DNA of 63,851 bases, counting the filler, from Dimargaris cristalligena (Eukaryota), in the NCBI GenBank assembly GCA_003614675.1. It is 12 parts of 12 records of this genome, joined end to end, with 100 filler letters (N's around TTAATTAATTAA, not from the genome) between each part and the next. Parts side by side here need not be neighbours in the genome. Positions count along the whole stretch, not along the records: positions 10,727 to 15,979 come from ML003661.1; 11 more parts are not named here. One strand, written 5' to 3'. A program made the position numbers and the translations under genes. Below are positions 1,528 through 53,278 of the stretch, one piece after another. Positions within the stretch are counted from its first letter, which is position 1. Every line of letters starts with the position of its first letter. The notes under the pieces are model-generated. The model searched no databases and was not told the DNA's origin. It was given only the letters and a program-made list of their open reading frames with translations.

Positions 1528-2110
1528 TGTCACCCAGGTTAACCACTCTTAGTCCATCAAGAGTCCTGAGGATAGGCTTCTAATAGTAGGTGGGGCTTAG
1601 GCTTGGCCAAGCAGGCTACTAGCATCAGGTATGGGGTACAGTACTAACTAATAAAGGTTTAGGTAATTGGTTATGCAAGGGATGTGTAGTAGGTACACTT
1701 ACTAGTTAGTATAAGGGAGTAAGTGTATATAGAGTTTATTAGGGTAAACTGGGGGGTAAGGATAAGCTAAGGAATCTAACCAGTCCCAATGGGGGCCAAT
1801 TATATATATGCAGGGGACAACTCCAAAGGGAGGTCCTAAGGGAAATACTACTATGGCTAAGGTATGGATAGGTAAAGAATATGACCAGGCTTCACATCGG
1901 GAAAACTCTCATGGGAACTGGAAGAGTCTTGGATCAGCATATTGAGTGTTTGGGGTGCAAAGTATTGGGGTTGGAATGAGCAGGGTTATATAATAAATGA
2001 TGACCCCATAGTACCAGGGGTGACTATGGGAGGGTTAATATGGCACTATAAGGCCTAATACAGATGGGCAATTATTAGGTCTGGATTAAGTCGGATTAGG
2101 AGGGCCAACA
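1528..2110 (-). mobile_element. LTR family A, full-length copy
   Basis: TGTCACCC...GGCCAACA termini; close similarity to the other family-A copies. TATA and AATAAA read on the minus strand. No target-site duplication (TSD). Confidence 0.9.
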
Positions 2111-3949
2111 CCCTCATATGTCTTTTTAAAAGGTCAAGGTCAAGGGGCCTCCCACAGCCGGAATTATTAAAAAACCAACATGTGTGGACTACTAGGGGAT
2201 TGTATTGCCTTACTAACACATACACCATGATGGTTATCACTATTCTAAGTCATATTAGACTGTCAGTTTGTATAATATTGGATGTTTACCATTCAAACTA
2301 TCTAATTACCTATAAAATTTCCACTGTATATCCCAAACTAAGCCATACATTGTTTTACTTGTGTCTTTAGATAAAATCCGCCTCATCTTGGTATTTGTGC
2401 ATTACTTAGAAGCTATTATAAAACTACTTTCGTGTTGGTGGGTTTGTAACCCAAGGAAAAAAGTATTATCGACTAACTTCGAAATCCACTGCCCAATATC
2501 TTCAAACCAAACGCACTTGTATACATAACAATTTACTATGTGCACCTACGCTTGATACCTTGCTAGTGTTAATCTGGTATTCTCGGCTTCGCCAGGTTTG
2601 CTGTTCTCCCAGCCAATATTACTAAAAAACTGGATGCTATTGAGCAGATCCGCAATCAATTGGATTGATACTACTCCATTCTAGTTGGTAAAAATGTCCT
2701 GGTTGGTGTAGCTAAGAAAGTGCACTTCGATATGTAAAAGACCATTCAAAAAAGCTGCAAAGGCCTCCGCAGGCATGACTGAGGTTGCTCGGAAGAGGTC
2801 CAGTCCCGTAATATACCGAAAGTCAGTTGTATACGGCAGATTTCATTCGTCAGAAATTGTATTCTCATCTGGCTACCCATTATTGATTTATTTCAAAAGA
2901 CGATACAGTTGGGGTGAATTTCGCCCACGCCTCGTATGATTATTTACAGGACTAGTGCGCCCTTGTATCCAAAATTATGGGTTTAGCTTGGTAATTCCAA
3001 AACAAATGGCACAACCAGAGAATTGGCATAGAAGTGGATAGGCATTGCCCTGTTTAGACCCATCATATATCTCATATTTTCTGTATTACCATAGTTTCCT
3101 AGTTGGCCTATTGGATTACTCGACCAATAATATAACAGTTTTGATCTTACATTCACAGTTCTTTTTTTAATCATCAATTATATACTTTATAAATCTTGAT
3201 ATATACATGCATTGCACAACCAATACGCCATGGACATGTCTGATTTGATCAATATAGACGCCTAATGGTCAGTAAATACACGTCACCCTAGACACCACGC
3301 TTCCAGGTGGCTTTACTTGCTAATTTTTCAACAATCTGATGTGTTCACATAGCGGATTGCCTACATATTTTGTCCAGGTCGTATACCCCGTTATCAATTA
3401 CGGAAGGACGAGTGTTTATTATTGAAAAAATCTGAATCCGAACGTGCCTTTTTTTAGGCTGATTAAATCCATGCATTTATCGCAGACAACAATGCCCCCT
3501 GACTGAATGCTCCATTTGAAAGTCAAAGTATTACAATTGTCTTTGTTGCCATTTGATGGCTGGTCACACCACCAATGTGTCACCATTGCATCAAATTCAG
3601 CACACCTGTTAGCATGTAGGAACTAGCCAAGGGAAGTCCAACGATGTCTGCAGTTTTAAGCGGCACATATGGAATCAATTGATACTTTCATTTTAAATTC
3701 CTTACATCATTTGCTAGATTTTTCGGCTGGTCTAGCCTTGACGACCAAGTCTAGCTTAATTTGTATATAACCCATACCACCGCCCCGTAGAAAATAGTAA
3801 GTACATAATTAACCTCATACTTACACTCCACCACTTTGAAAATCGAATGCCCCTGACTCGCTTCAGCTGAACCTTTCGGTTTAGTTCAATAATACACACT
3901 CTCTCCCTGCCGCTCACCCACCATATTTGTAGCCGTATCGCAAAGTACT

Positions 3950-4425
3950 ATGTACCTCCAGGAAGATTCCGGCACTTGGAAGCAAGCATATATTGACCGT
4001 AAGGCAGTGAACTATTATTATATTATGACTATTACCGAATCTGGCATTACATTCCAAAGACATTGTCACTTTATCCAGCCCCAATCCTCCACGGATTGTT
4101 TCACTCCCTTCTCTATTTATATGTTATACTCGACTAGGCTGGTTAAACATGGTGAGATAAATGAGAGTACTAATACCACGTGAACCATTACTATGTATTC
4201 ACGTATAAATATCTAACTGTGCATTGGTCCGTACCTTAATTTAATCCTGGATGGCTAGTCTATTTTCAATATGCATTTCGCGTAGACCCCGGGACGTGGT
4301 TCGATGGCACTGTTATCAAAATAGACAAGGAGGCCCATACACTTACCATGGAAGATCCTGAAGGAGTTGTCACTACTTTAAAACCCTTGGAGGTCATTAT
4401 TTTTGTTTCCCCGGATGAAGAATGA
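3950..4425 (+). CDS. Putative 62-aa beta-rich micro-protein, join(3950..3998,4286..4425)
   Basis: ATG 3950, donor GTAAGG 3999, acceptor TAG 4283-4285, in frame to TGA 4423-4425: MYLQEDSGTWKQAYIDHPGTWFDGTVIKIDKEAHTLTMEDPEGVVTTLKPLEVIIFVSPDEE. Confidence 0.4.
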
Positions 4426-4655
4426 AGAACCAGGGAATGCCAGAAATTACGCTGGCCTTCTCCACAATTCCTCACCCATATTAGTACCAATAACCGAAAT
4501 AGGCCTGCCTTCTCCACTGACATAACTTGTTAAATCAGGAGACGATTTTTGAATATTGAGACTCTATCTTTTTTGTAACTAGATGTATGTCCACAGTTAC
4601 TAATTTCTTACTACATACTGGCTGATCCAATAGGACTAAAATAAAATAGTTATCC

Positions 4656-5167
4656 TATCACCAGGGTTAACCACTCTTAGTCCATCAAGAGTCCCGAGGA
4701 TAGGCTTCTAATGGTAGGCAGGGCTTAGGCTTGGCCAAGTGGGCTACTAGCATCAGGTATGGGGTACATTACTAACTAATAAAGGTTTAGGTAATTGGTT
4801 ATGCAAGGGACATGCAGTAGGTACACCTACTAGTCAGTATGGGGGGGGTGAGTGTATGTAAGGTTTATTAGAGGTAAACCAGGGGGTAAGAATAAGCTGA
4901 AGAGTTGAACTGGTCCCAATGGGGCCCAGTTATATATACATGGGGATAGCTCTAGAGGGAGGTCCCAAGGGAAATGCTACTAAGACTAAGGTGTAGGTAG
5001 ATAAATAGACTAATGGGACAGCTTTGTATCTGGAAGACTATCATGGGAACCGGAAGAGACTTGGGATCAGTAGGTTGAGTATTTTGTGTGAAGCATTGGG
5101 GCTGGAAGGAAAAAGGTTATATACTAAATAATGATCCCAGAGTACTGGGGGTAACTATGAGAGGGTT
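4656..5167 (-). mobile_element. LTR family A copy interrupted by a family-B LTR
   Basis: Begins TATCACC (TG->TA mutated terminus); aligns with 1528..2110 until 5167. Confidence 0.9.
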
Positions 5168-5265
5168 TGTAAAGAACTGAAATTAAATCCTTGAAACTGA
5201 ACTTTATTTGAAAAGATAGATAATAAAAGGGAAAGGTGATAATAGACTTGCTGTTCCAAGAGGGG
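5168..5265 (-). mobile_element. LTR family B end (contig terminus)
   Basis: TGTAAAGAACTGAAATTAAATCCTTG..., near-identical to four other contig-end copies. Confidence 0.85.
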
Positions 5266-5365
5266 NNNNNNNNNNNNNNNNNNNNNNNNNNNNNNNNNNN
5301 NNNNNNNNNTTAATTAATTAANNNNNNNNNNNNNNNNNNNNNNNNNNNNNNNNNNNNNNNNNNNN
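5266..5365. other. Artificial contig spacer
   Basis: 100 bp of N with central TTAATTAATTAA (stops in all six frames). Confidence 0.99.
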
Positions 5366-10626: not shown

Positions 10627-10726
10627 NNNNNNNNNNNNNNNNNNNNNNNNNNNNNNNNNNNNNNNNNNNNTTAATTAATTAANNNNNNNNNNNNNNNNNN
10701 NNNNNNNNNNNNNNNNNNNNNNNNNN
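10627..10726. other. Artificial contig spacer
   Basis: N-TTAATTAATTAA-N, 100 bp. Confidence 0.99.
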
Positions 10727-10727
10727 T

Positions 10728-11027
10728 GCCGATCCACCAAACTACGAAATGATGATTAAGAATAACAACCGCGTAGTGTTTATATGGACCCATATGGAAC
10801 CCACGAGCCTGTTGGCCGCTTTAAAACTGGGTTATACGCCGGTCGTGGTATATTTCAAAGATGATGTACGGGGCTTTGTGGAAGAATTGGACAGATTAGT
10901 TCTTTTCGACTGTCACGGACAAGAAACGTCTTATATCGCCTGGGACAAAGAGAGCATGACAAAATTTTATGAAGACTTTACTGCGGCCATGAAGGAAGTA
11001 ATTGCTTTATACACGCCGTGTCCTTGA
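10728..11027 (+). CDS. Hypothetical protein, C-terminal fragment cut by contig start
   Basis: Frame open from the contig edge to TGA 11025-11027; protein-like alpha/beta composition; no family recognised. Confidence 0.45.
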   Translation, partial: ADPPNYEMMIKNNNRVVFIWTHMEPTSLLAALKLGYTPVVVYFKDDVRGFVEELDRLVLFDCHGQETSYIAWDKESMTKFYEDFTAAMKEVIALYTPCP

Positions 11028-12085
11028 TGACCAATCGTTTTGTAACCATGATTTAAACCTGATCCACCATCGGATTCATCACTAGGAATTATTACAGTTG
11101 TCCGTATCACTGCTTAACACTACCGTCCGGTATGCCATGGTTGAATGCTAATAGTTGATACCAAATCCCGCTTATGGCCTTTTCATTGGATATATTTTTA
11201 GCTTTTTAATCATGCCAACGTCTAAAGCGACGAATTTCATTTATTGCATTGCTGCGATTAATAACTAGCAAACCAATTAGTGTTGATGCATTGTCAACGA
11301 AATCATCCATCATAGCTTCCTCACAACTCCTTTGTATCTATTCTTGTAGCGTAGCTGACATTGCCATAGTATTCGAATTTGCATAAAGAATCGTTGTAAT
11401 TCCGTAAAGGAAATCAAGAAGTAGTTTACCGATTTTTGAAGTTCACATTTTTTATTCGATACTGTTATTCATTGTCAATAAACCCCATGTTGCTTTCACT
11501 AGAATTTTTGTTAAACCCTCCGGTAATGACATTCCCCTGTTCCGTACGGTTTTACCTAGTGACCATCATGAGTTCCAGCGGCCCTGAAACCTAACAGTAT
11601 TTGTCCAGAAGCATCCTTAGACCCGTCTAGTATTATGCTGGTGGTTTGAGGCGTCTCCATTTCGGGGTTAGGACTTGAGTTGGGTTCTTGGCCTTCTCCC
11701 TAAACGGCAGAGTCACCGGACGTCAGATTCGAGGGGCTGATGCCTACGTGGAACATTGAGAATTCGGGAAACAGTCCCACTGCTAGTCGGAATTAGTCGG
11801 AACTATTATTGGAGCTGGTACTGGGATTTGGTGGAAACGGATCCAGAGTAATGGGTCCTATACTCCCGTCGTCAGAGTTAGGTGCTGGAGGAGCCACAGT
11901 GGCTACGATCTGTAAACCAAAAATTAAAAAATAAAATACAATAAATGATAAATTTAAGCTTCCATATGAAATTTCTGGTAATGCTGGGGTAAATGCTGGA
12001 TGAAGTTCAAAAACAGACATTTATTTGAAATGTACCTCGAAGATACTTTACCATTTTAAGGGCCAACTAAAATGCCATATATATA

Positions 12086-12627
12086 TGTCGCCTGAATTAA
12101 CCACTCTTAGTCCATCAAGAGTCTCGAGGATAGGCTTCTAATGGTAGGTGGGGCATTGGGCATTGCCAAGTGGGCTACTAGCATTAGGTGGGGGTTGTAC
12201 TAACTAAATAAAGCAAGTGTAGGTTATGTACGTAGGGGGGGGTGGTTACTGATGCACACTTACTAGTCAGTATGAGGGGGTGAGTATATATAGGAGTTTA
12301 TTGAGTAAACGGGGGGGGGGGGTAAGAATAAGCTAAAGAATCTAACTGGTCCCAATGCGACCCAGTTGTATATACATGGGGGAACTACATAACTAAGATA
12401 TCAATAAGGGAGACTGGGTGGTCCTCACGTTAGAGGAGGCCTCTATGGGAACTGGAAGATACTAGGATCATTGGGGAGTGAGTGGTGTGAACCCTGAGAG
12501 GTCTGGCCAATAAAGTGATCCATGATGTTTGGTGCCTGGGTAGGACCGGGGTGTCCAATATTGTGTTATAAGGCCTGATATGGTAGTGATTGCTAGGACG
12601 GATTAGGCTAGATTAGAAGGGGCAATA
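12086..12627 (-). mobile_element. Solo LTR, family A (divergent subfamily)
   Basis: TGTCGCC...GGCAATA termini; flanked by ATATA on both sides (12081-12085, 12628-12632; low-complexity TSD). Confidence 0.85.
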
Positions 12628-12872
12628 ATATATATATGAAATTTTATTACATGTTAAGCTTATACTACAACTTTTGGACTTTGTCCTCAGATGGACTGGT
12701 AACTATAAAACTATGAAGGGGAAACCTCATCAGGTCTTTAAATTTGAACATTGTGCAGAATGACTGGAATAATGGAAAATATAAAATGGAAATCACCTTG
12801 GATCTACCAAGGTGTTCATATTAACTAGATGAAATGAGTTTTGAGTGGAGGACTTTAATACTACATATCCTC

Positions 12873-13420
12873 TGTTGGCCCTCCTAATCCCGCCTAAATC
12901 TGGGAGTACTAATTGTCCCATCCTATCTTGCCTTATAGTGCCATATTACCCCTCTTCTCTCTTATAACCTCCTAGGACTGGTCCCCAATGCTTCACATGC
13001 AACACTCTGCCGGCTGATCCAATGACCCCCCAGTTCCCATGAGAGTCCTCTAGAAGCAAGGCCACCTGGTCAGACTTCCCCCTTATTATAACTAGTCTTT
13101 ATTGTATTCTCCTTAGGATCTCTTATTATGAGCAGTCCCTGTATATAAATAGCTGGCCCTCTGGGACTAGTTAGTGCTTCAGCTTATTCATATGCCAGTA
13201 GTTTACCCCCAATAAACTCTCTATATACTTACCCATTGTATTGACCAGTAAGTGTGCTACTACACAACCCTTGTATTAAGCCCTGCACTTATCCTTTATT
13301 AGTTAGTACTGCTCCTGCCCTAATACTATCTGCCTGCTTAGCTAAGTCTAAGCCCCACCTATTATTAGAAGCCTGCCCCCAGGACTCTTAATAGACTAAG
13401 AGTAGTTAACTTGGGTAATA
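12873..13420 (+). mobile_element. Solo LTR, family A, with 5-bp TSD
   Basis: TGTTGGCC...GGGTAATA termini; TCCTC at 12868-12872 and 13421-13425; TATATAAAT (~13142) followed by AATAAA (13211) defines the sense orientation. Confidence 0.92.
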
Positions 13421-13681
13421 TCCTCTTCCAATAGATGGAATTTTCCTCCTCTTACTTAATATAATGTGTGAATATGTAATCCTGAAGATAAATAAAGTAT
13501 TACTAAACTAACTAGAAATAGTGGTTAGATTTGGAAATATTTATCATAACATCTGTTGCACTATCATAAGAACTGTTTAAGGTGGTGGGCTTTTATTTGT
13601 CAAGTATCTGTAAGGTACTATAGGTACTAATTAATAGTATATTCTTATGGAGGGGAAATTCCATCCCTGCCCATGGCAGTA

Positions 13682-14657
13682 TATTACCTAGGTTAACCAC
13701 TCTTAGTCCATCACGAGTCCCAAGGATAGGCTTCTAATGGTAATTAGGGCTTAGTCATAGCCAAGTGGGCCACTAGCATCAGATATAGTGTTGGCACTAT
13801 TAAAAGAGTAAAGTGTGAGTGGTTTTTATCAAGGAAAGAATATAAGTAGTATGGACTTGCAGAAGCCATGTGAATATTAGTAAATGGAAGAATAAGAGTA
13901 CACACCCAATGCTTATTTATATGGACCATAACAGGCATCTGGGAAAGCTAAGGAGGGTTAATAACATATTCATTGGACTTTCTGGAAAAATATTCTAGAT
14001 GACAGAATTAGTGGTATCCTTAGAGAGTATCAATTTACCAGGGGTCCCTATGCTAGACATATGTAGCTGAAATGAATTCTCAGTCAAAGATACTATGGTT
14101 AGAACATCAGGATTAGTAAAATCTATGGGGTCCAAAGGAACCTTGCTACCTTAATGCCTGGGGCTGGTCCCTGAATTAGCTGTGGATGCAAAAGTACAAA
14201 CTAATAAAGGCTATAGTAGGTATATATAAGGGATGTGCAGTAGTATACTTACTAGTTAGTATATAAGGGGGTGAGTATATATAAAGTTTATTAAGGTAAA
14301 CTAAGGGTAATAATAAGTTAAGGGGTCTAACTAGTCCTAAGGGAGCCCAGTTATATATAGGGATAGCTCTAAAGGAAGGTCCCAAGGGAATAATATTACT
14401 AAGAATAAGGTATAGGTAAATGGGTTAACTGGATAGCTACTAGTATCTGGAAGATTCTGATGGTAACTGAAAGAGTCTATAGATTAGCACTTGAGTAATT
14501 AGTATAAAGAGGTAGAGTCCAGAAGGAGAAGAGTTATATAATATAGGATAATCCCATAGTACTGGGGGTGACTACAGGAAGGTTAATATAGTACTCTAAG
14601 GCCTAATAGGGCCAGACACTAAGCCAGCTGGATTAAGGGGGATTAAATAGTTCAATA
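13682..14657 (-). mobile_element. LTR family A copy split by a ~400-bp insert starting TGTTGG (13789..~14190)
   Basis: Family-A alignment stops at 13788 and resumes near 14191 at the next consensus position. Confidence 0.75.
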
Positions 14658-14871
14658 ATGATCAAGAGAAACTATTACTTTCCCTGAATTAAGAAATGAA
14701 AATTATTATAGGGAAAATTTAAATCTTATTTTTTCCTTTATTTCCTTCCTCCTAAGCAGCCCTATTTAGTGTCTAATATTACTACTGTCAATTCTTATTA
14801 CCAGTCACTTTTAAAAATTTGTACAATGGGGTTTTCAGTTATTATAGACCAGTCAGTTACCCTTTAAGTAT

Positions 14872-15122
14872 TGTTGCCCCTCCTATTCCAACCTAATCTG
14901 TCCCGCTAAGGATTACCATCATAGCAGGCCGTATAGTGCTATAGTGTATCCCCGGTCCTAATGGGGCCAGACACCATATATATCATCTTACTGGCCGGAC
15001 CCCCCTTGGAGTTTGTACTACTCACTCCTAGGTGATCTTAGTGTCTTCCAATTCCCATGGAAGCCTCCGCTCATACGAGGACCACCTGGCCCTCCCTGTC
15101 ATTATCCTAGTTATGTAGTTTC
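14872..15122 (+). mobile_element. LTR family A 5' half, interrupted by a Copia element
   Basis: TGTTGCCCC start; reverse-complement match to the 12086..12627 subfamily. Confidence 0.8.
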
Positions 15123-15979
15123 TGTTGAACTGCATCTCCCCCCGAGTACCATTTACTGTATTGGGTATTTCGAGCAATCCTATTGGTCAAAACTACACCC
15201 AATAAATACCACTACAATGAGCTTAATTCTCATCTTGCGGTTCTTTCTTACTTCTATCTATCTTACAATAAACTTTATCTTTAGTCTATCTTGGATTATA
15301 ACTAAGAGAATCTGTGGTTACTCCAACAGGTTATGAGCCCTGCTGTCCGTGCTACTCATCACACAAACATTCATATATACTTATAGCTTAAAGTGATCTA
15401 AAGCATAACTCACTTGAGTTCTCTATCAATCCATCTCTCACCATCACCAATCCTCAACATCCATCCATCCATCCAATCACCAATAGCTTCAATCAAAACA
15501 TTCACGTTCCCATTCCCCTGTCTGACTGGTAACAACTACAAGACGTGGTCTGGCGACATGCAGGCAATTCTTGAAATGGAAGATCTCTGGGCAATCATCA
15601 TTGATCCACCAACTGTGAAAGAAGAGACAATTGACAAGGCCATCCATCATGCCAAATACCTGATGGACCATAAGGCTGTTTGCTACCTCCGTCAAGCAAC
15701 TTGTGAGAAGATTCGTAACACTCTTCTACTGAACAAGACTGCAAAGGAGATCTGGGACTCCCTCGCCAACTAGTACACCTGTATGACTTCAACAAAGGTC
15801 TTCCGCCTACACGCCCAGCTCTACCATCTGAAACAGGGTGATATGAGTATCAGTGACCTGGCAACCAAAATTGAAACACTGGATGACGAACTTTTGCACT
15901 TTGAGCTATCCCAAGATCAGCGCTGTATGCTCATCCTTCTCCAATCAGTGGATCCGAAGTACCATCTGTATGTGACTCA
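15123..15979 (+). mobile_element. Ty1/Copia retrotransposon 5' end: LTR 15123..15328, primer-binding site (PBS) 15329..15340, gag
   Basis: TGTTG...CAACA LTR of 206 bp followed by GGTTATGAGCCC (Copia-type PBS) and a gag-like frame. Confidence 0.88.
15414..15979 (+). pseudogene. gag: Copia gag with in-frame stop at 15771
   Basis: LTGNNYKTW...LWAII and KTAKEIWDSL motifs of Copia gag; ORFs 15414 and 15783 share a frame across TAG. Confidence 0.85.
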
Positions 15980-16079: not shown

Positions 16080-16162
16080 AAGTCTATCATCACCTTTCCC
16101 TTTTATTATCTATCTTTTCAAATAAAGTTCAGTTTTCAAGGATTTGATTTCAGTTCTTTACA
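16080..16162 (+). mobile_element. LTR family B end abutting the degenerate Gypsy pol
   Basis: ...GATTTGATTTCAGTTCTTTACA, reverse complement of the other family-B ends. Confidence 0.85.
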
Positions 16163-19100
16163 CAGGGTATTCCCAGTACCTGTATGTTCCTCTTCATGGA
16201 CCAGATGAATTAATTGTGGAGTATATCTATTATAGAATTTAAATTCACAATTCCCTAAGTTTGTTTTCAACAGTTTACCATCCTTGAGTTTTTACCCACA
16301 AATTTGGAGGTAAATTATATGGTAGACCACATAATCTGTTCCATTGGGATAAGCCTTGGACTTGGGGTACTATTATAAAACTGAATATTTGTAAAAATTG
16401 AGGGCATTGCTATCTCATTCTTATTCATTGTTTGTTTTAGATTCCATTTCTGGATAGGAAATCAGCTAGGTTGTTCTGTCCAACACAGTGCTTCAGAGTG
16501 AAGCTGTACTCTCTGATAGTTATGGCCCATCTAGCTAGGTGGCTAGTAGCCTCTTTGGAATCAAATAGGTAAATTAATGCAGTGTGGTCTGTAAAAATAG
16601 TAAAAATTTGATCCTAAAGATAGTTTTTAAAGTATACAACAACCCATATACCACCTGGGTCTTCCAGATGAGTTGCAGCATAGTTTTGTTCACTTTTTCA
16701 CAATGTACAGCTGGTAAAAGTTATGAGTCTTTCCTTCCCTTCATGTTCTTGGGGTAGGATTGCTATAATGCCATTTAAAGAGGCAATAATAATAAAATAA
16801 ACAATTGTTCCCAGTCTGGATGAGCTAAATCTGGGGCCATAACCATCAAATTATTGAGGGATTCTACAGCTGATCCTGCCACTTCTGTCCAATGCCACAG
16901 TATATTTTTCTTTAATAATTGGGTCAGTAGTTTTGCTTATCATGTAAATTTTTCAATAAAATAGTAATATTAACTAACTATTCCAAAAAAAGGACTGTAA
17001 GTCTATGATGTTTTTTGGAGATATAGCCTGATGAACTTTTTAGATTTTTAATTAATCAGTAATGATCCCTTAACTGTAAATGACATGGCCAAGATATAAG
17101 AGGCTCTTCATAGCAGGTTGACATGTTTCATTTTGTAATTTGATATTAGCAGCTTTCAATAGTTAAAAAACAGTGGCTAAATATTAGTGATGTTTAGCAG
17201 GATTTGATGAATAAACAATTGCATTATTAATAAAGACAAAAGTGAATTTCCAGAGGATAAGTGTTAATGCAGTTTCCAGCATGTGCTAATATGTAGGCAA
17301 ACTGTTAGTTAATCCAAAGGTTATAACCTTGTACCTATACAGTCCATCACCCGGTAGGGCAAATGCAGTCTTGCTTCTATCCTCAAGTTTCAAAGGGACT
17401 TGCCAGAATCCAGAGAGGGCATTGAGGGTAGAGTAGATTGTTGCTTTGGAGAGTGCATGGAATAGATCATCAATCACTAGCAGTAGGTACTGATCCTTTC
17501 AGATAATAGTGTTTAGGTGACAATAGTCTAAACATATACAAATTTTTCTATTCTTTTTCCAGACAACAACTACTGGGGCACACCAACCAGATTGGCAGGG
17601 CTCAATTACCCCATATTCCTTCATTGTTTTTATTTCTTCCCTTGCTTATTTTTTGGCAGCCTGTGGGATTCTATATGGTCACAGCTTAATTAGTTTAGCC
17701 TCTCCGGTGTTGATTGTATACTCAATCAGTGTGGTTTAAGTGAGTTCTGTGATGTCTGTGGCCAATAAATCTTTGTATTCTTCAAATATACCATTGAAGA
17801 GGGATTATTCATGTAGTGTGAGTTCATAATGACATGTTGATGCTGATTGTTCCTCCACACCTATGACTAGGAAATCATTTTCCAAATCTGGTTCACTGGG
17901 ATTGGATTGGCCAGTCAAAGTGGGCAATACTACATCCACTAAAGGATGGGAGAGGGTGATCTGGTTGTGGCAGAGATCCACTGTGGCAGGGTATTTTTTG
18001 AACTAGTCAACACCAAGGATTAACTCATTATGAGAGTATTTTAATACTATTGCTTGTCCAGGAAAATCATAGCTGGTGATGGTAATAGGAACCATTGAGA
18101 TAACACTGAGGGGGCTGTGTAGGATTCATGGTCAATCTTCAGGTTTTCCTTTTCTGTTTCTTTATAGCACAACTTCAGTAGTTCAGTCTTGATACTGGGT
18201 GCACATTGAATGAGTTGCCCAAAGGAGATTGTTGCCTTAGTGTCCAATAGATCCTCAATTGAGTATAGATTAGCACTCGCCATGAGTTTCAGAGTAGGAG
18301 GGCCACAGGAATGGGGTTCTGGGGCTCTGGCTACCACAATTAGCTTGTTGGATTCTTTGTTGGGATTGACCTTCTGCTGCTTGACTTGATTAGCTACTAG
18401 TTCACTATTGTTGGCCCTTTTGATAGTGAACAAATCCAGATTGGGATCTTCCAGTTCTACACAGTTAAATTGAGTGGAGTTCCTCTTTTGGAGAAGGGGA
18501 CATTCAAATTTCCTATGGCTGGGCACCATAGAGTTGAAACATACCCTTTGCTGGTATACGTCTACCTCACTAGCTGTGAGTTGCCTTTTTGGGTACTGGG
18601 GATGAGTGGTTTCATGGTTCATCAAATTGATAGTAAGCTATTCCACTTTCTTGATCAACCAACCAATTATTGCTGTTGAATCATCGAGTATGGGTGGTGC
18701 TAAAGGATTTGCCATCCTTGAGTTGGTCGCCACAGTTTTCCCATCAAATTTTAGGTTACCCTGCTGGCTGGCTGCATCCAGGTTTTCCTCATAGGTACAG
18801 ATGTTGATTGCCTCCACAAACATGGCCACACTATTTCGTAGGATTTGCTTCTGGTGATCACTGTTGACTGCATTCAGCAGGTAGTGTAGCTTATCCACAT
18901 CATTGGTAGTTTTAGTTTGCTTGAATAATTGGGTCAGGGTTGCTGCAAGATCCATGATTGACCTCTGCCCCTGTTGGACCCCTTGCAGTTCATTCCAGGC
19001 CCAAATTTCCCACTCCTTATTGTCAAATTTGGCTAGGGACAGTTCTTCAAAGATATCCCAATTTTTGAAATGATCTTTTTGGTAGACATACCAGGCCTGG

Positions 19101-19370
19101 GCCATTGCACTGAGGTACAGTAGTACCGTTTCTAAATTGACTTCTTCATCCCATGATTGGGGGTGGCAATACAGCTTGTAAATTTATAGCCAGATGATAG
19201 GATTGGCATTAGGACTTCCTATGAATACCTTGGGTTCCATGAGGACTTGCTAAACCTATTTTTCAGTGCTTTCTTTTTCCTTCATTTTGATTAAAATTCT
19301 CATTTTTTGATTTTTCTTGAAAAATAAACTTTTTGTGATATAATTGGTGGTTAGTTGAGGGTTTTGACAT
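16163..19370 (-). pseudogene. Degenerate Ty3/Gypsy gag-pol (gag, zinc knuckle, RT, RNase H)
   Basis: Gag-like ORF 18638..19105; knuckle CFNSMVPSHRKFECP; RT YSTLNALSGFWQVPL...DRSKTAF; FVFINN at the YxDD position (17223-17234); RNase H FTIFTDHTAL...LARWAI; many stops. Confidence 0.92.
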
Positions 19371-19708
19371 CATTATTGGTAATAAAATATAAATATAAAA
19401 GAAGTAATACCCTCAGGTACTCGAAAATAACTAAAACGTAATCAAACTTCCACAGAAGTGCTATCTGGTGAATTCTTTAGCCTCAACTAAAAAGTTATGT
19501 TTATAAATAAGATATTCCACTGAGTATTTCTACTAAAACTTGGGGATTATAAATTGATAAATGCTAAGGACTAAAGAACTAAATTTGGACTAATGGTAAA
19601 TGATAATAAAATGGTTAGACCCATTTGTATAACCAAAACAAAAGTAAAGACAAGGGTCTTCAAATTATACCATTGGTTATATATGGTAAACCATTTATTA
19701 GTATTACC

Positions 19709-20290
19709 TGTCACCTAGGTTAACTACTCTTAGTCTGTCAAGAATCCTGAGGATAGGCTTCTAATGGTAGGTGGGGCTTGGGCTTGGCCAAGTGGGCTAC
19801 TAGTATTAGGTATAGGTACAGTACTAACTAATAAAGGCTAAGTGCAAGTATATGCAAGGGACATGCAGTGGGTACACTTACTAGTTAGTATGAGGGAGTG
19901 AGCATATATAGAGTTTATTGGAGTAAAGTAGGGGGTAATGATAAGCTAAGGAATCAAACTGATCCCAGTGGGGCCCAGTTATATATATGCAGGGATAGCT
20001 CCAGAGGGAAGTCCTAAGGGAAATGCCACTAAGGCTAAGGTATAGGTAGATAAAGGATCCAACCAAATGGTTTCATAACTGGAAGACTCTCATGGGAACT
20101 GGAAGAGTCTTGGATCAGTAGGTTGGGTATTTTGGTGCAAAGCATTGGGGCTGGAAGGGGAAGGGTTATATAATAAATGATGACCCTATAGTACTGGGGG
20201 TGACTATGGGAGGGTTAATATGGTACTATAAGGCCTAATATGGATGAATAATTATTAAGTCCAGATTAAGTCAGATTAGGAGGGCCAACA
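19709..20290 (-). mobile_element. LTR family A, probable 5' LTR of the Gypsy element
   Basis: Full TG...CA copy in the same orientation, ~340 bp upstream of gag; no TSD. A further short family-A end follows at 20291..20333. Confidence 0.85.
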
Positions 20291-20998: not shown

Positions 20999-21199
20999 TA
21001 TTACCTGGGTTAACCACTCTTAGTCCATCAAGAGTCCTGAGGATAGGCTTCTAATGGTAGGTGAGGCTTAGGCTCAGCCAAGTGGGTCACTTGTATCAGG
21101 TATAGGTGGGGTATACTGACTAATAAAGGCTAGCAATAGGTATATGCAAAGGACATATAGTAAGTACACTTACTAGTTAATATAGGGGGAGTGAGTATA
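20999..21199 (-). mobile_element. LTR family A part interrupted by a family-B LTR
   Basis: TATTACCTGGGTTAACC start; alignment ends at the TGTAAAG junction. Confidence 0.88.
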
Positions 21200-21324
21200 T
21201 GTAAAGAACTACAATCAAATCCTTAAAAACTGAACTTTATTTGAAAAAATAGATAATAAGAAGGGAAAGATAATAATAGACTTGCTGTTCCAAGAAGTGG
21301 CAGCAAGGGGGAGTATTTATACTC
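21200..21324 (-). mobile_element. LTR family B end
   Basis: TGTAAAGAAC...; the minus strand has TATAAAT then AATAAA, i.e. the promoter-to-U5 end of an LTR. Confidence 0.85.
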
Positions 21325-22053: not shown

Positions 22054-23446
22054 ATGCTTCGCAACGCCCTTTCGCAACTGGGTGAGTAGCCCGATCCGGA
22101 ACGCTCCATTGGCAGCATTCACTGCCCCAGGCCTCACAAGTAGTCGAGAATAACTGCGGGGGGGGGCGGGGATAGGTGCTTTCTATACCATCGAGACCGC
22201 CCTTCGCATATAACCAACCTCCTGCTGTAGCGATCGTTACTCGGCTGATCTAGCTGAAGAACCGCCCCAGTACCCGGCCCCATGCTTCAGAATTTACTAG
22301 GCTAGGGCGCAATCCCTCCATATATTCACACATTGACCCATTTCGTATGTGGCCTGGACATAGAGCCCCACTACCCACGATGGTAACTAACCCTAACTTA
22401 ATATATTTTTATATATTGTCACTTCCCCTTTCCCTCGCCCTATGCCATGCCTTCCTCGTTTACTTCCCCATTTGCCTCACACAGCCCAGCGCCGTGCCTT
22501 TTCCACCTCTGTCCTCCGGGCCTCGCCCTATGACAGCACCTTTGGCAACATGGCCATCGGCAAGAACACCCGGGTCATCTGCCAGGGGTTCACCGGCAAG
22601 CAGGGTACTTTCCATTCCCAACAGGCCATCGAATACGGCACCAACATGGTCGGGGGCACTTCGCCCAAGAAGGCCGGTACCACCCACCTGGGTCTGCCCG
22701 TTTTTGGTTCGGTGAAGGAGGCCGTGCGTGAAGTGAAGCCCGACGCTTCGGTGATTTATGTGCCCCCGCCCGGGGCCGCCGCCGCCATTCTGGAGGCCAT
22801 TGAAAACGAAGTGCCCCTGGTGGTGGCCATTACCGAAGGTATCCCCCAGAAGGACATGATCAATGTGGTCAAGGCCCTCCAAACCCAGAACAAGACCCGT
22901 CTGATCGGCCCCAACTGCCCCGGCATCATCAAGCCCGGCGCCTGCAAGATCGGTATCATGCCCGGCCATATCCACTCCGCCGGTAAAATCGGTATCGTGT
23001 CGCGTTCCGGCACTCTAACCTACGAAGCCGTCAACCAGACCACCGAGGTGGGTCTGGGCCAGTCGCTGGTCGTCGGTATCGGCGGTGACCCGTTCAACGG
23101 TACCAACTTCATCGACTGCCTCAAGGTGTTTTTGAACGACCCCGAAACGGAGGGCATCATCCTGATTGGTGAAATCGGCGGGTCCGCCGAGGAAGAGGCC
23201 GCTGCTTATCTGCGGGAATACAACCTGACCCGGACCCTGCCCAAGCCCGTCGTGTCCTTCATCGCCGGTCTGACCGCTCCCCCCGGTCGCCGCATGGGTC
23301 ACGCCGGTGCCATCATTGCCGGTGGTAAGGGTGGTGCTCAAGATAAGATCAAGGCCCTGGAAGACGTCAATGTCGTGGTGTCCAAGTCCCCGGCCCAGCT
23401 CGGTATGCTTATGCAGAAGGCCATGAAGGAAGCCGGTCTGGCCTAA
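22054..23446 (+). CDS. LSC1: Succinyl-CoA ligase alpha subunit, mitochondrial; join(22054..22081,22485..23446)
   Basis: [27 protein letters not shown] and RMGHAGA motifs; GTGAGT/CAG intron gives presequence [22 protein letters not shown]. Confidence 0.97.
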
Positions 23447-26948: not shown

Positions 26949-27252
26949 CATTTTTTATTTCCTTGAATTCTATGGTGACTTTTTTCTATTGATTTATTAT
27001 TTATTAACATCACCATTTTTTATTATCTTTCAATAAACTTTGTACTCCTCATTTATATCCCCCATCCTCCACTTTGTTTCACTGATCATTTGCCCCTCTA
27101 CTATCTCACCGTGACAATGTCCAACTCTGCCCCAGTCTCATTCAACTCTGTGAACCTCCCATCTTCTGCCACCAGGGAGCTGGCCACTGCAATTTTAGGC
27201 CATACCAATAAGGAGGCTGCTAGCAATAGGCCGGACATCCCAGGTAGTACAA
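26949..27252 (+). repeat. Dispersed repeat E (probable transposon 5' UTR and ORF start), copy 1
   Basis: Aligns with 49330..49672 through ...CCCAGGTAGTACAA. Confidence 0.8.
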
Positions 27253-27733
27253 AACTATACTTAGTGTAAAAACTGACTGTTAATTAAGAGAATACCCAAT
27301 AGGTATTTATATGAAATGGGACATAGCAACCTACTGGTACTATGATAGTACTAGATAAAATAGAATAAAGAAGGCTACCAATGCTGGCAACTTTGGAGGT
27401 GCTAAGTCTGGGGATATGCCCCAAACTTCTATAACTAAAAGATCCTTAAGCTGTGAATAATAACTATGAATACTGAATATTGAATATTGAATACTGGAAG
27501 AGTAGCCTAGTCATTGCATGGCCTATAAATGGGTAGGAAAAGATGAAGACTGACCTTTGGTGATGGTCTTCATCTTTTCTAAACTAAAAATAGTTTGGCC
27601 AGGATATGCTATTAGAGATTAAGCAGGCCTGGTCACAATACTACATTATATTTCATTTCCATTAACCCTGTTTTATATAAATACCCATTGAGTATTCTCT
27701 CAATAAAGGCAAACAGTTTTACACTAGTATAAT
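27253..27733. mobile_element. MITE with ~70-bp imperfect TIRs carrying an LTR-like insert (family C, ending at 27640)
   Basis: 27253..27320 is the approximate reverse complement of 27666..27733; internal ~27517..27640 matches the reverse complement of 58526..58650. Confidence 0.65.
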
Positions 27734-28962: not shown

Positions 28963-31218
28963 CTACAGTTCAGACCATAGATGATGTCCGATATCCAGGC
29001 TTCGTCTGACAAAAGGCGAGTCCCGCATGGTCCGAATCTCGTCCACAATCTTAATGTTGGCCTTCCACAGATCCCCAAAGCAATCTAAGACTTGGACGAT
29101 TTCGTCGATAAGCCGAGTAGCCAACCTCCGATCAGCAGCCGCCACCAGACTAGGAATAGCCGAGCCCATCCCGTGGATATGCTCGCTGCACACCATGGCA
29201 GCGGGATACAAAGACGCAATAAACAGCGTGTTGTTGATAAAAGCAGGCGGGGTAGCCGAATCAATTAGCAGTTCACGAAGCCGAACAGTGTTGGTCCAGC
29301 ACCGCTCATGACATTCCGACAGAGTGCGACCAGTCAAATCCCCCGCCGCCTGAAGGGCACTGTTTAGGGCCAGGCCGGGAAAGGGGTCTGGACTATCGGG
29401 GGAATGACCATCGAAGTGATTGAGGTGGATGATCAGCGTGGCACACAGTACGCGGACCTGAAAATAATAGGTATTAGCTTCCACCCAAGTGGGAAGGTCA
29501 GACGTGCCTTCCGTTTCCTGCCAATCCGTGCGGGCCAGTGCGGTATATCGAGTGTGCCATTGCTCAAGTTCGTAATTGAGACTGGGTAAACTATTTAACC
29601 AGGCTGCGGGGTCAGAGGTCTGCAGCGCCCGGAGCTTGGCCACATGATGGCCAAGAATGACCACCTCAGCTTTGACAATAGTGATGTTGTTTTTAAGGCG
29701 GGAATTACTTAAAAGAGTCGGGTACTCTTTACCAGTAAAAATGGCTGAGTTCGGATTAGCAAGTTCAGTGTCCAACAGGGATTCAACTACAACGCCGGGA
29801 CATGGCGGGTTGACGTAGCAGTCATCCAAATCAATAAGTGGCCGATGCCCCAACACGAGTGCCCCGATCATATCTTTGAATAATGCGGCCCACCACAGTA
29901 CCCGGTAGCACTCGCGTAGTATTTCGCTGCCGATGGCTGGAACATCCACGGCCGCGCCCAACTTCGAGCCAAGGTAGGCCAGTCGCGGGGGTGGATTAGG
30001 GTGGTCCAAGAGATGGATTCGTTCAGTTTGCTGTTTACGGATTGAAGCGGCAATTAAGGACTGGTGCAGTGAGAACATGCCCAAGTTAAGTGTAGCATCG
30101 GCTACTAGGTTGAGTACACCGTACATATCCGGACTGGAGTCTTCCAGGCAAAAAGGTACCATGGAAAGGAGACGACTGTGGTATTCGATATTCACACTGT
30201 GCGGCGTGATATGATCGAAAATGGGGTGGTCCGAGAAGGGCGCTACAGCCATCATGGCAGCCAGCTGAAAGGGTTTGGAAATAAGTCCGTTATCCAGCCG
30301 AAATAATACCCGGAAATTATTCAATGGATTACAGCCCTTGTAAATAAACGTGGAAAAGTTGTCGATTGAATGTCGAACCACGCTAGAATGGTATAACAAG
30401 TCGGTGGGAATGATTAGAGAGCGGGTATTGAAGGGGCCAGCGCCAGGACTCCGTGAAACGACAGTGGGTGGCTGGGAATCGCTCTGCTTGACCAGGCGGG
30501 AAATCTGGTCAAGGTAGGTGATACCCTGGGGGGAGGCTGGTCGATTTCGAATCAGTTTGAACAGTAGCCGTGATGTAATCTGACTAATGCTATCGAGAGC
30601 TAGGCGAGTCGAGGGCAGCTGCCTCACACTTGTCGCTAGCCAAAAAGGAAGCGCGAGTGGGGTCGCTGTAATAAGGTTCGGTGGCGACGTTGGGGATACT
30701 AGGGAAGAAACTTCGAGACCGATATCGTCCCAAGACGACGAATAACCGACGACAGTTGTCGAGTGCGGGTTCGATAAGTTTGGTAGCTGGTCTTGATCAG
30801 CCCGCCCCCCAGTTGTCACCAAGGGAACTGTTACGGTTTGGCATTTAGTAGGGGGATAAAGCGAGCCATCACCATCGCTTGGCGGGGAAAGTGGCACTAT
30901 AGGGGACAGGGTTCTAGCTTCGGGAAACCTCTGCAGGTCAGGTGGACCGGCTGACGGACAATTGGCATAGGTCACCGGGTTACTAAAGACGGGTATCCTC
31001 TGGGTAGCGAGGTGTGCCAAGACTTTGCGACGGCGGGCTGGGGTCATCTGGTAATGACAATCAGTACCCCACTGCAAGCACCTGAAGCAACGGGGCAGAA
31101 GTCGATTGCAGCCAGATTTGCGCTTCCGGCAGGCAAGGCAGGAATATCGGGAACGGCTGGGGTTTGACCCCCCAGGGACGGTAATTAAAACGGGGGCATC
31201 AGTGGTAGCGCGACTCAT
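28963..31218 (-). CDS. Zn(II)2Cys6 fungal transcription factor, 751 aa, intronless
   Basis: CLACRKRKSGCNRLLPRCFRCLQWGTDC cluster; middle-homology-like region RECYRVLWWAALFKD. Confidence 0.93.
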   Translation of the reverse strand: MSRATTDAPVLITVPGGSNPSRSRYSCLACRKRKSGCNRLLPRCFRCLQWGTDCHYQMTPARRRKVLAHLATQRIPVFSNPVTYANCPSAGPPDLQRFPEARTLSPIVPLSPPSDGDGSLYPPTKCQTVTVPLVTTGGRADQDQLPNLSNPHSTTVVGYSSSWDDIGLEVSSLVSPTSPPNLITATPLALPFWLATSVRQLPSTRLALDSISQITSRLLFKLIRNRPASPQGITYLDQISRLVKQSDSQPPTVVSRSPGAGPFNTRSLIIPTDLLYHSSVVRHSIDNFSTFIYKGCNPLNNFRVLFRLDNGLISKPFQLAAMMAVAPFSDHPIFDHITPHSVNIEYHSRLLSMVPFCLEDSSPDMYGVLNLVADATLNLGMFSLHQSLIAASIRKQQTERIHLLDHPNPPPRLAYLGSKLGAAVDVPAIGSEILRECYRVLWWAALFKDMIGALVLGHRPLIDLDDCYVNPPCPGVVVESLLDTELANPNSAIFTGKEYPTLLSNSRLKNNITIVKAEVVILGHHVAKLRALQTSDPAAWLNSLPSLNYELEQWHTRYTALARTDWQETEGTSDLPTWVEANTYYFQVRVLCATLIIHLNHFDGHSPDSPDPFPGLALNSALQAAGDLTGRTLSECHERCWTNTVRLRELLIDSATPPAFINNTLFIASLYPAAMVCSEHIHGMGSAIPSLVAAADRRLATRLIDEIVQVLDCFGDLWKANIKIVDEIRTMRDSPFVRRSLDIGHHLWSEL

Positions 31219-31874
31219 GGGAGAGCGTCCTAAGGGCGGTTCTGTGTAGTCGGACTGGAAAGTGTATAAGCCTGACAGATACCAAAAACGAAAGAGAAGG
31301 TGAATGGGTAATAGTGGATCGAAGAGAAGTAAACGAAAAACCCACTTCTTTAAAGTGTTAACCGCAGGTGTAAGGAGTAGAGTTGGCTGTGGTGGACATG
31401 TATATCCTCCAAAGGGTCATATTGGTAAGGATAGGGTGGTATTGTTAGGATGCGAACTGGAATAGAAACTTAATCGAGGTAAACTTGGACCGAGTAGAAC
31501 TAACAATGATTCCACTTACATGAGACGAAAACAGTATAAAGCGAGTTTCGGTGGATGTTACCATCATATGCAGGCAAGTCACAACTATTAGGCTATGCGA
31601 ATAATTAGATCGCACACTACATACCAAATTACTATACATTAAAGATATTTCGGCCAATGATTTGGCTATAATGTGCTGATATGATAAGCAATGGCCCCAA
31701 AGATACTAGCAATGTATATACCAGATTACTGGTTTTACCAGACGGACTTTCTACAAATGGGGCGCTTAGCCGTGGGGCACTACTAATTGGGGAGGCGGGC
31801 GTATAATGGAGGTTACGGGATACAACCAATACTATCTAAGGGTACATCTATATGGCAGAAGTTCAACTATGCTG

Positions 31875-41608: not shown

Positions 41609-42263
41609 TAGTGCACTTTACTAACCTGTATCCACTAGTTACCGGACGGCAATTTCGCTCGTTTGATGCAGGGATTAACGTCCAGATTGTTTTCCTGTAT
41701 ATAGGTATCATGCCACCATTTTAGGTAGATTTTCTCTGGTGGAATTATCAACCTTTAGCTCTTTATCAAATTTTCATATGTTCTGTAGTCTCATTTTTCA
41801 CCTGTATAGTACAATTACGACTTTATGCATTGGGGTAGATTGTTTGGTGGTTTAACTAGTCCTCCCGGCATTGACTGTCGGTTTTTGGTACAATACTCAA
41901 TTTTATTGATCATTCCTGGTTGAATGACATTGTAATACTTTTATCTATTCAACGCCGTATGCCTCAACCAATGTATCTCCATTTCTATTCTTTTTGAAAA
42001 ATTCAATAAACACTGTGTGGTTATTGCCAATATATAAATATGATTAAACATCAAACTAAAGGCAATGGATGGGCGCAATAATAAATTGATATTATACTGA
42101 CAATGACTGAGGGATAGGAATAGAAGAAGCACTATTGAACAATAATTTGCTATGGGAAGGGGAAAGGCCACAGCCCAATAAGGTTGTATTAGCTGGCATG
42201 ACACAACTACCCTAAGTATCTACTGATATAAGTTTAAACCACTGGTGTTTTATGTAAATAGAC

Positions 42264-42640
42264 TGTTACCCAGGTTAACCACTCTTAGTCCATCAAGAGT
42301 CCTGAGGATAGGCTTCTAATGGTAGATGGGACTTAGGCTTAGCCAAGCAGGTTACTAACATTAGGTACAGGCACAGTACTAACTAATAAAGGCTTGAGTA
42401 CAGGTATAGGTAAGGGATGGGTAGTATGCACATTTACTAGTTAGTATAGGGGGGGAGGTAAGTATATATGGGGTTTATTAGGGGAAAACCAGGGGGGGGG
42501 TAAGAATAAGCTAAGGAATCTAACTAGTCCTAATGGGGCCCAGTTATATATACATAGGGACAACTTTAGAGGGAGGTCCCAGGGGAAGGATACTACTAAG
42601 ATTAAGGTATAGGAAAATGGGCTAACCAGATGGCTATTAG
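42264..42640 (-). mobile_element. LTR family A part interrupted by a family-B LTR
   Basis: TGTTACCCAGGTTAACC start; alignment ends at the TGTAAAG junction. Confidence 0.9.
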
Positions 42641-42693
42641 TGTAAAGAACTGAAATCAAATCCTTGAAAACTGAACTTTATTTGAAAAGATAG
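42641..42693 (-). mobile_element. LTR family B end
   Basis: TGTAAAGAACTGAAATCAAATCC... at contig end. Confidence 0.85.
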
Positions 42694-49329: not shown

Positions 49330-49672
49330 TCATTTTATTTAAACTCATCTTTTCTATTCCTGAAAACTCGACTGCAATTTTCTATTGACTATTTATTATT
49401 AACACCACCGTTTTTATTATCTTTCAATAAACTTTTGCACCCCTCGTTTATACCCCTGTCCTCTATTTGTTTTACTGGCCATTCGCCCCTCCGAAACCCT
49501 ACCATGATGACACCCAACTCTGCCCCTGTCTCATCCAACTCTGCGAACCCCCCGTCTTCTACCACCAGGGAGCTGGCCACTGCGACTTTAGGCCGCGCTG
49601 ATAAGGAGGCCACTGCCTCTTTGCGAATCTCAAAGGCCGTTAGCCACAAGCCGGACCTCCCAGGTAGTACAA
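49330..49672 (+). repeat. Dispersed repeat E, copy 2
   Basis: Aligns with 26949..27252 and retains CpGs lost in copy 1. Confidence 0.8.
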
Positions 49673-50193
49673 TAGCAACCGAGGGATGGGTAAAATGGTC
49701 CTTATAGTAGCCAGTGTTGACACAGGGAGGGGCTATGGCACATTAAGGAGTAATACAGGTTAGTCGCATTGGAAAGACCTCTACCTGATTTGGTTGGATT
49801 AATTGGGGTGATAACAGCTATATGTTATTGTTGGCATAATGAAATGCCATTTAAAAAGCGTGGTATTAATGGCGAATATTACAGCTTGTCCGCGTAAGTG
49901 TGAATTTCATTATATAGAGGGACTGAACTTCTCCCATAGAATAAGTAATTATGTGATCAATAGACAACACAGATAATAGGTCGGGTATTGCTTTCACTTT
50001 ATATTTTTATTGGGTTATGGTTTATTTATTAGATGCCAAAAAGAATATACTCGAATAGGTCAACAAGCCGATGGCAATAGCAGGCCATGGGAAATGGTGA
50101 TACCTGGGCTGGTATTCGTCATCAGCGTAGCTTACTTAGTGGCATCAGTGCCGGAAATGATCGGACCCGGCCTCGCACATATTAACTAGTGTT

Positions 50194-53125: not shown

Positions 53126-53278
53126 TGCCCATGGGTTGGCAGCTCAATAATTGACTGGGCATTTTTCTGGAGGGTCAGCTACCAGGGTTGGCCCCGCCAG
53201 AGGGGTAGTACAATCGTCCCCTGTGCCCTTTCTTGGATTATTTTTGCTAAGACCTGGCCAATGATTCCGAATGGAGGG
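53038..53278 (-). pseudogene. DIRS N6-adenine methyltransferase-like domain fragment
   Basis: PPFGIIGQVLAKIIQERAQGTIVLPLWRGQPW* matches the DIRS MT pattern (N)PPF...L.KI..E.A...V.P.W..QPW. Confidence 0.8.

Follow-up and report, generated by a model that had tools for sequence, protein, structure and literature searches.

Repeat-induced point mutation (RIP), the RID-dependent process of Neurospora and the Pezizomycotina, changes C to T preferentially at CpA, on both strands, in repeated transposon DNA and not in genes. In the RIP-affected repeat families described for Stagonospora, the TpA/ApT index is 1.35–2.2 and the (CpA+TpG)/(ApC+GpT) index is 0.24–0.74, with control values of 0.83 and 1.25 (PMC2621366). 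The occurrence of RID is described as limited to Ascomycota (PMC13297926; PMC4352252), and a kingdom-wide screen that used scaffolds of more than 50 kb is summarized as finding repeat-enriched mutation signatures in ascomycetes only (Badet & Croll, 2025; PMC12543289). According to the account of Amselem et al. (2015; PMC4352252), CpA signatures are tied to RID/Masc1 and CpG-only signatures to the Masc2-type Dnmt1; Tuber melanosporum has a CpG signature with a weaker CpA signature, and Microbotryum, Puccinia and Melampsora have CpG-only signatures. A mitotic, Dim2-dependent mutator producing C-to-T changes at CA has been described in Zymoseptoria tritici (Moeller et al., 2021; PMC8016269), and 5-methylcytosine is reported almost exclusively in the repeats of the kickxellomycete Linderina pennispora and also in Phycomyces (PMC11258239). 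Our literature search found no report of RIP-like mutation and no DNMT inventory for Dimargaris or the Zoopagomycota. Because the known repeat-directed C-to-T signatures are, as these sources present them, confined to ascomycetes, and CpA signatures occur there only together with RID/Masc1 (PMC12543289; PMC4352252), a zoopagomycete with a solid CpA signature would imply that such genome defence or a methylation-linked mutator originated much deeper in fungal evolution.

In this study, we examined an LTR in the genome of Dimargaris cristalligena for which a preliminary description had proposed a RIP-like CpA-to-TpA bias. The result that the window supports is more ordinary than RIP. Its transposons bear what is probably the mutational mark of CpG methylation, to which CpA adds a modest component, a combination apparently undocumented for this lineage. 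As in RIP, the affected DNA is repeated transposon DNA rather than genes, C-to-T change, by majority polarity, appears to prefer CpA on both strands, and the TpA/ApT index is raised and the (CpA+TpG)/(ApC+GpT) index lowered in repeats compared with unique DNA. Unlike in RIP, the effect is small (25% vs. 7–8% of sites, and approximately twofold when unpolarised), reverse transitions and transversions are abundant, no net AT gain is seen, CpG is hit far harder than CpA, and the transposon interiors are not enriched in TA; moreover, the host is a zoopagomycete, a group from which RID is not known in the sources cited above. The systems of Tuber and the other species treated by Amselem et al. (PMC4352252) are similar in that the younger Dimargaris copies have Ti/Tv above 2, a dominant CpG signature is joined by a secondary CpA signature, and the link to Dnmt1-class methylation is drawn from sequence alone. 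They differ in that CpA change is described there as tied to species with RID/Masc1, whereas Dimargaris lies outside the Dikarya, and in that whole genomes were compared there and nine copies here. The Zymoseptoria mutator (PMC8016269) is linked to a methyltransferase, acts on methylated transposon regions, and is described as lowering CA and raising TA without meiosis, and a process of that type would give a CpA excess of the kind seen in Dimargaris. However, more than 95% of the mutations reported there are C-to-T, more than 98% of those are at CA, and CG is spared, whereas in Dimargaris CpG is nearly erased and CpA change moderately raised. The repeat-confined 5-methylcytosine described for Linderina and Phycomyces predicts a transposon-limited CpG depletion such as that found here; those are direct methylome measurements, whereas methylation in Dimargaris would be deduced from a mutational footprint (PMC11258239).

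The solo LTR and its relatives

The window, by which we mean the whole stretch of DNA analysed, comprises 63,851 bases in 12 pieces of approximately 5.3 kb each, joined by linkers. Since the pieces are separate, distances and neighbourhood are meaningful within one piece only. Piece ends frequently lie inside repeats, several of them inside a young repeat, family B, which is found at five ends. The detectable repeats amount to approximately 6.1 kb of the window, and all repeat counts are based on these. The features are as follows.

5266–5365, 10627–10726, ... 58651–58750: linkers, N44-TTAATTAATTAA-N44
12873–13420, plus strand: solo LTR of family A, copy A7; blastn to 8 other copies at 69–74% identity, boundaries set by the target duplication
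12868–12872: left target-site duplication TCCTC, 5 bp, read directly and identical to 13421–13425
13421–13425: right target-site duplication TCCTC, 5 bp, read directly
1528–2110, minus strand: A1, full-length LTR, 583 bp, from the alignment; CpG 2, TA 69, CA+TG 66
4654–5160, minus strand: A3, LTR cut by a family-B repeat at 5161, from the alignment; 5′ TG changed to TA
12089–12629, minus strand: A6, divergent LTR that keeps 8 CpG; its 3′ half matches 14869–15120, not the main family
13682–13790, minus strand: A9, LTR fragment, 109 bp; 5′ end TATTACC
14170–14625, minus strand: A5, the one LTR copy with a clear directional C-to-T shift; GC 0.36, TA 80 vs. CA+TG 27, CpG 0
19709–20290, minus strand: A2, 5′ LTR of the partial gypsy element of piece 4, from the alignment and the adjoining domains
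20999–21199, minus strand: A8, LTR fragment cut by a family-B repeat; 5′ end TATTACC
42263–42633, minus strand: A4, LTR cut by a family-B repeat; TA 52 vs. CA+TG 30
16164–19708, minus strand: decayed Ty3/gypsy interior; gag 18641–19183, RT 17289–17498, RNase H 16440–16936 (Pfam)
21200–21324, plus strand: B3, family-B copy, 90–100% identical to 4 other copies, differences counted by eye
5161–5265, 16080–16163 (minus strand), 42634–42693, 53274–53339: other family-B copies

The preliminary description had guessed that the host is a non-Dikarya fungus, and two marker genes bear this out. The succinyl-CoA ligase alpha ORF at 22397–23446 is 99% identical to a D. cristalligena protein among 8000 candidates scored, followed by Dispira simplex (89–90%) and D. 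xerosporica (88%). On piece 8, where the repeat copies A4 and B4 also lie, a GH16 ORF has D. cristalligena CRH2 as its best match, with 86% identity, and Tieghemiomyces comes next (five hits among 112 candidates). Because both ORFs are closest to Dimargaris, we assign the host to the Dimargaris lineage of the zoopagomycetes. A degenerate family-A motif and a family-B stretch each had 0 matches in a bacterial and archaeal contig collection.

The family-A LTR is approximately 583 bp long, has the ends TGTCACC...CCAACA, and is represented in the window by nine full or partial copies. Since A2 adjoins gag, RT and RNase H, the family belongs to Ty3/gypsy; on the minus strand of piece 4, the domains beside A2 follow the order Retrotrans_gag (weak, E 0.023), RVT_1 (E 1e-6) and RT_RNaseH (E 4e-7), and the integrase is absent from view because the piece ends. 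The family thus has the TG..CA-type ends, the 5-bp TCCTC duplication and the adjoining gag-RT-RNase H of a Ty3/gypsy LTR. Copy A7 is complete at 548 bp and reads TGTTGG...GTAATA on the plus strand; with the element of piece 4 as a guide, this would be its sense orientation. Because it is complete and has a perfect TCCTC duplication on either side, it is a solo LTR. We conclude that 12873–13420 is an ordinary old, decayed solo LTR of a Ty3/gypsy family. The interval given in the preliminary description holds exactly one LTR copy, and the copy and consensus strings quoted there match our alignment.

The mutated TG/CA termini that had been pointed out are real. Among the eight readable 5′ ends, four read TA instead of TG (4654, 13420, 13682 and 20999) and four keep TG (1528, 19709, 42263 and ~12089); the 3′ end near 12627 reads CAATA vs. 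CAACA, and a second LTR family near 27640 reads CACAATA vs. CACAACA in its partner. Because LTR termini are needed for integration, these changes arose after insertion.

Between A1 and A3, which have the same orientation, lie 2.5 kb (2111–4653) with a near-normal rhoCpG of 0.66 and no transposon domains; therefore, it is probable either that the two LTRs do not belong together as the ends of a single intact element or that host DNA has been captured between them. Family B, which begins TGTAAAGAAC, resembles the end of a young LTR. Three LTRs of family A are broken by it, each at a different position, and so is the gypsy interior, once; this pattern suggests that a high-copy element caused assembly breaks or that family B inserted itself into older elements.

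Loss of CpG from transposon DNA

The dominant signal in the window is a near-total loss of CpG that is confined to transposon DNA. Six family-A LTR copies have a rhoCpG of 0.00–0.08, A9 (109 bp) has 0.19 and the divergent copy at 12069–12630 has 0.27; the value is 0.08 for the gypsy interior and 0.39 for a copia gag region, compared with 0.73–0.95 in unique DNA and 0.73–0.82 in the gene pieces. The edges are sharp, with values of 0.95 at 10727–12068 and, as given above, 0.66 at 2111–4653 in the unique DNA that flanks or separates copies; all transposon segments lie at 0.00–0.39 and the adjacent unique segments at 0.66–0.95. In addition, polarised CpG-to-TpG/CpA changes are accompanied by a reciprocal excess of CA/TG in the interiors, where rhoCA and rhoTA are 1.25 and 0.84 for gypsy and 1.32 and 0.74 for the copia gag region. 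The LTRs themselves have no reciprocal CA/TG excess (rhoCA 0.5–0.9).

The coding remains of the gypsy element record the same decay. Among the 410 codons of the pol frame, 13 are stops and none is CGN, and the best of 619 hits to it is 29–36% identical. Codon changes were polarised by eye at the residues strongly conserved in 120 homologues only, and there we counted 8 CpG-to-TpG/CpA changes, including R to C four times, R to H twice and R to Q once. The same residues gave 9 CpA-type, 4 CpC-type and 4–8 CpT-type changes, 5–6 reverse transitions and approximately 30 transversions; because CpA makes up approximately 39% of the C sites, the gypsy interior shows no clear preference for CpA. RIP should mutate whole repeat units and turn Gln and Trp codons into stops. 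Here, both interiors are poor in TA and rich in CA/TG, the pol frame still has 7 intact TGG codons, a clear Gln-to-stop change accounts for only 1 of its 13 stops, and the most mutated context is CpG rather than CpA.

Outside the family, the repeat pair C (26975–27325 and 49370–49720) is approximately 75% identical; one of its copies lies in DNA that is rich in AT and poor in CpG, and this copy shows a 41:14 shift towards T/A. The 11 CpG of one copy that face TG, CA or TA in the other account for the shift, and the CA/TA differences are balanced. Neither pair C nor pair E shows a CpA asymmetry, which is a further argument against RIP. At 15402–15770 (plus strand), the copia-type gag remnant (DUF4219, E 4e-8; Retrotran_gag_2, weak) adds another class of transposon that bears the footprint of CpG decay. 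Taken from their sequence, the transposons of Dimargaris bear a clear mutational footprint of what is probably CpG methylation, with a modest CpA component.

The CpA component and its possible causes

According to the preliminary description, most changes in A7 are TG to TA or CA to TA. This is true of the end that was quoted, but over the whole copy such changes are 11 to 13 of 128 substitutions. With the majority of the other family-A copies as reference, the 128 substitutions (498 sites) comprise 37 C>T/G>A, 45 T>C/A>G and 46 transversions, and the counts of these three classes by thirds from the quoted end are 10/6/5, 15/11/16 and 12/28/25. A7 does show more C-to-T change at CpA (11/27) than at CpC and CpT (8/103, p=1e-4), but this excess is offset by 10/93 TA-to-CA changes. 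Its content of TA, CA and TG is the same as in its relatives, and TA/(TA+CA+TG) is 0.52, compared with 0.50–0.52 in A1–A3. Paired with A1–A4 in turn, the sites with C/G in A7 vs. in the partner number 46:47, 58:52, 45:54 and 29:33, that is, without C/T asymmetry.

At the level of the family, a CpA effect is present. We counted sites at which the neighbour is identical in copy and reference, with polarity taken from the majority state when at least 60% of the remaining copies shared it. C-to-T change was found at 50/197 CpA (25%), 28/418 CpC (7%), 37/439 CpT (8%) and 2/2 CpG sites. CpA vs. CpC+CpT (50/197 vs. 65/857) gives an odds ratio of 4.1 and p=6e-11, counts that are pseudo-replicated across copies because the copies share history. 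The CpA count is 77/246 when double differences at former CpG sites are included, and 50/197 is the corrected count. The excess persists without A5 (40/176 vs. 52/767) and in four alignment settings (25–28% vs. 7–9%), is tied to the 3′ and not to the 5′ neighbour, is equal on both strands (24/90 top, 26/104 bottom), and has no preference for CAG/CWG within family A (CAA 10/50, CAC 10/34, CAG 4/26, CAT 18/57). In four disjoint pairs, compared without polarity and at sites where both copies have the same neighbour, differences were found at 74/365 YpA, 23/224 YpC and 40/295 YpT sites (YpA vs. YpC+YpT, 63/519: OR 1.84, p=0.0013). A column-pair test (29/32 vs. 28/65) overstates the effect because many TA sites gaining C inflate the class of polymorphic CpA. 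Polarity, the least secure element of these counts, was also read from singletons; where all other copies agree, CpA gives 9/152 and the other contexts 27/796 (OR 1.8, p=0.16), and without A5 the odds ratio is 1.3 (p=0.58).

The bias does not extend to genes. Ten ORFs supply 3315 synonymous Y sites at third codon positions, and the share of these occupied by C amounts to 0.586 when A follows, 0.619 when C follows, 0.548 for T and 0.504 for G, and thus these sites show no CpA deficit (A vs. C+T: OR 0.99, p=0.90). The index TpA/ApT and the index (CpA+TpG)/(ApC+GpT) are 1.26 and 1.01 in repeats and 0.83–0.95 and 1.15–1.20 in unique DNA. For unique non-coding DNA the comparison is one of composition only (rhoTA 1.06 and rhoCA 1.02, vs. 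1.32 and 0.89 in repeats), and so confinement to duplicated DNA is seen in composition rather than in rates. The preliminary description would have been contradicted by C-to-T rates at CpA no higher than at CpC and CpT after correction for CpG decay, by the same bias in unique DNA, or by an ascomycete host; none of the three was found. Its claim of a CpA-to-TpA bias in repeats holds as a family-level excess on both strands, but not as a net direction, since CA-to-TA changes number 50 and TA-to-CA changes 76 and the singletons are not significant. We regard the CpA effect as real but modest and as superimposed on a CpG decay of the methylation type. With a single LTR family in nine copies, the sample is too small to settle what causes the CpA effect.

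The explanation towards which we lean, without strong conviction, is that A7 is an old solo LTR in long neutral decay, with methylation-type loss of CpG and a weaker effect at CpA, and not a product of RIP. The differences of A7 from its relatives would then have accumulated over a long time, against a background of roughly symmetric transitions of approximately 7–10% per site in each direction. CpG would have been almost wholly lost, inside transposon sequence only, through 5-methylcytosine at CpG and its deamination. The weaker rise of C-to-T change at CpA/TpG, approximately 25% per site by majority polarity and approximately twofold unpolarised, may come most readily from low-level non-CG methylation or from poorer repair in methylated transposon chromatin. 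T-to-C change in the family (TpA 76/726, TpC 24/236, TpT 24/355) is about as frequent as C-to-T change, and therefore no net flow to TA results. The LTR family would be near compositional equilibrium, so that old and young copies look alike; A1, A2, A3 and A7 share a TA/(TA+CA+TG) of 0.50–0.52 despite threefold different transversion distances. RIP is set aside in this explanation because the process lacks a strong direction and does not act on repeat units in their entirety. The preliminary description had offered methylation with deamination as an alternative to a repeat-directed system, and this option fits better than RIP, although the "dense non-CpG methylation" that it named exceeds the data. 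Several observations count against slow neutral decay with methylation. A5 and B3 look more directional than would be expected of a slow process at equilibrium, the loss of CpG may pre-date the insertions in a family that was possibly already CpG-poor, and the CpA excess is not significant with clean polarity and has no clear counterpart in the gypsy interior. A simple clock-like picture is also difficult to square with a four-gamete test on 99 informative columns, in which 36–46% of pairs are incompatible in every class alike, transversions included, so that the test did not separate recurrent hits from shared ancestry.

A tenable but less probable explanation is that no CpA-specific process exists and that the excess of CA/TG-to-TA differences, in both directions, is a by-product of family history. 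The LTR would have been TA-rich and CpG-poor when it spread, most variable sites would be old differences between master lineages that are counted repeatedly, polarity would be partly wrong, and the two-step decay of former CpG would add YR variability. The lack of a significant CpA preference among the singletons, the high incompatibility in every class of informative sites and the shared TA/(TA+CA+TG) of four copies of very different age agree with such a history, as do the mismatch rates seen from the T side, which are uniform across contexts (0.21, 0.19 and 0.22). Approximately 20 YR column pairs are likely former CpG sites because they have CA together with TG or still have CG. However, the disjoint unpolarised pairs still favour YpA, former CpG cannot give TA without a further, non-CpG transition, and two copies depart from the common pattern. 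Among the singletons of A5 (14170–14625), 16 are C>T/G>A and 3 are the reverse, and its C-to-T changes prefer CpA (10/21 vs. 13/90 at CpC+CpT, p=0.002); A4 is similar to A5 in composition. The young B3 differs from its four relatives mainly by G-to-A changes, of which there are 5–6, 3 of them at TpG. Both A5 and B3 look directionally mutated.

It is conceivable, but in our view doubtful, that a RID-independent C-to-T mutator acting on methylated repeats, with CpG >> CpA > CpT/CpC, operates in the Dimargaritales. If so, A5 and B3 would be its freshest victims, the signature would be the first that is RIP-like (or like Dim2 "mitotic RIP") outside the Dikarya, and the reported link between the CpA signature and RID/Masc1 would be broken.

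RIP itself, in which a RID-like enzyme or some analogue hypermutates duplicates recognized by homology from C to T, with a preference for CpA, during sexual reproduction, is not supported, and we consider it improbable here. The CpA share of C-to-T change (0.43) and the dominance of 0.75 would count as "medium" on the RIPCAL scale as given in PMC2621366. The indices of A5 and A4 (TpA/ApT 1.78 and 1.93; (CpA+TpG)/(ApC+GpT) 0.53 and 0.68) fall within the range given there for RIP-affected families, Ti/Tv is 3.4–9.3 among A1–A4, the indices separate repeats from unique DNA as reported above, and genes are unaffected. However, RIP changes are overwhelmingly C>T/G>A, whereas in A7 these are fewer than the reverse transitions and than the transversions, and the family as a whole has 205 vs. 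215 transitions in the two directions. A7 has a Ti/Tv of 1.8, and its GC content of 0.44 lies above the 0.32 of both flanks, without AT enrichment. RIP also calls for a TpA/ApT of at least 0.89 together with a (CpA+TpG)/(ApC+GpT) of at most 1.03, and A7 gives 64/41=1.56 and 58/55=1.05; the first threshold does not discriminate here because unique DNA (0.83–0.95) passes it too. With the CA/TG-rich, TA-poor interiors and the singletons added to this, the repeat-directed, RIP-like system put forward in the preliminary description finds no support, and the ascomycete-restricted distribution described for RID and for repeat-enriched signatures points the same way.

Editing of the cDNA before integration by a cytidine deaminase, as APOBEC does on retroelements, would suit the fact that LTR retrotransposons are affected and that B3 has almost only G-to-A changes on one strand, but it is rejected as highly improbable, given that both strands of family A are hit equally at CpA (see above), that the per-base rate of G>A (141/1021) equals that of C>T (64/470), that the changes in the LTR termini arose after insertion, and that the one-strand look of B3 is uninformative because the B segment is very C-poor.

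Other contents of the window

The dinucleotides CC/GG are over-represented throughout the window, with rho values of 1.17–1.47 per piece and 1.69 in repeats, and G runs of variable length are present in the LTRs. No DNMT gene lies within the window. The remaining pieces carry ordinary fungal genes, namely an NRPS fragment, an S8 subtilase, a Zn2Cys6 factor, PGAP1 and an acyltransferase. The NRPS modules occupy a single open frame of 1742 codons across an entire piece (42795–48020, minus strand), in the order Condensation, AMP-binding, PP-binding and then more Condensation, and the frame is without intron-like breaks, which is notable in a zoopagomycete. Long uninterrupted frames also encode the S8 subtilase with an inserted PA domain (53518–56136, minus strand, 872 codons) and the Zn2Cys6 transcription factor (28963–31416, minus strand, 817 codons).
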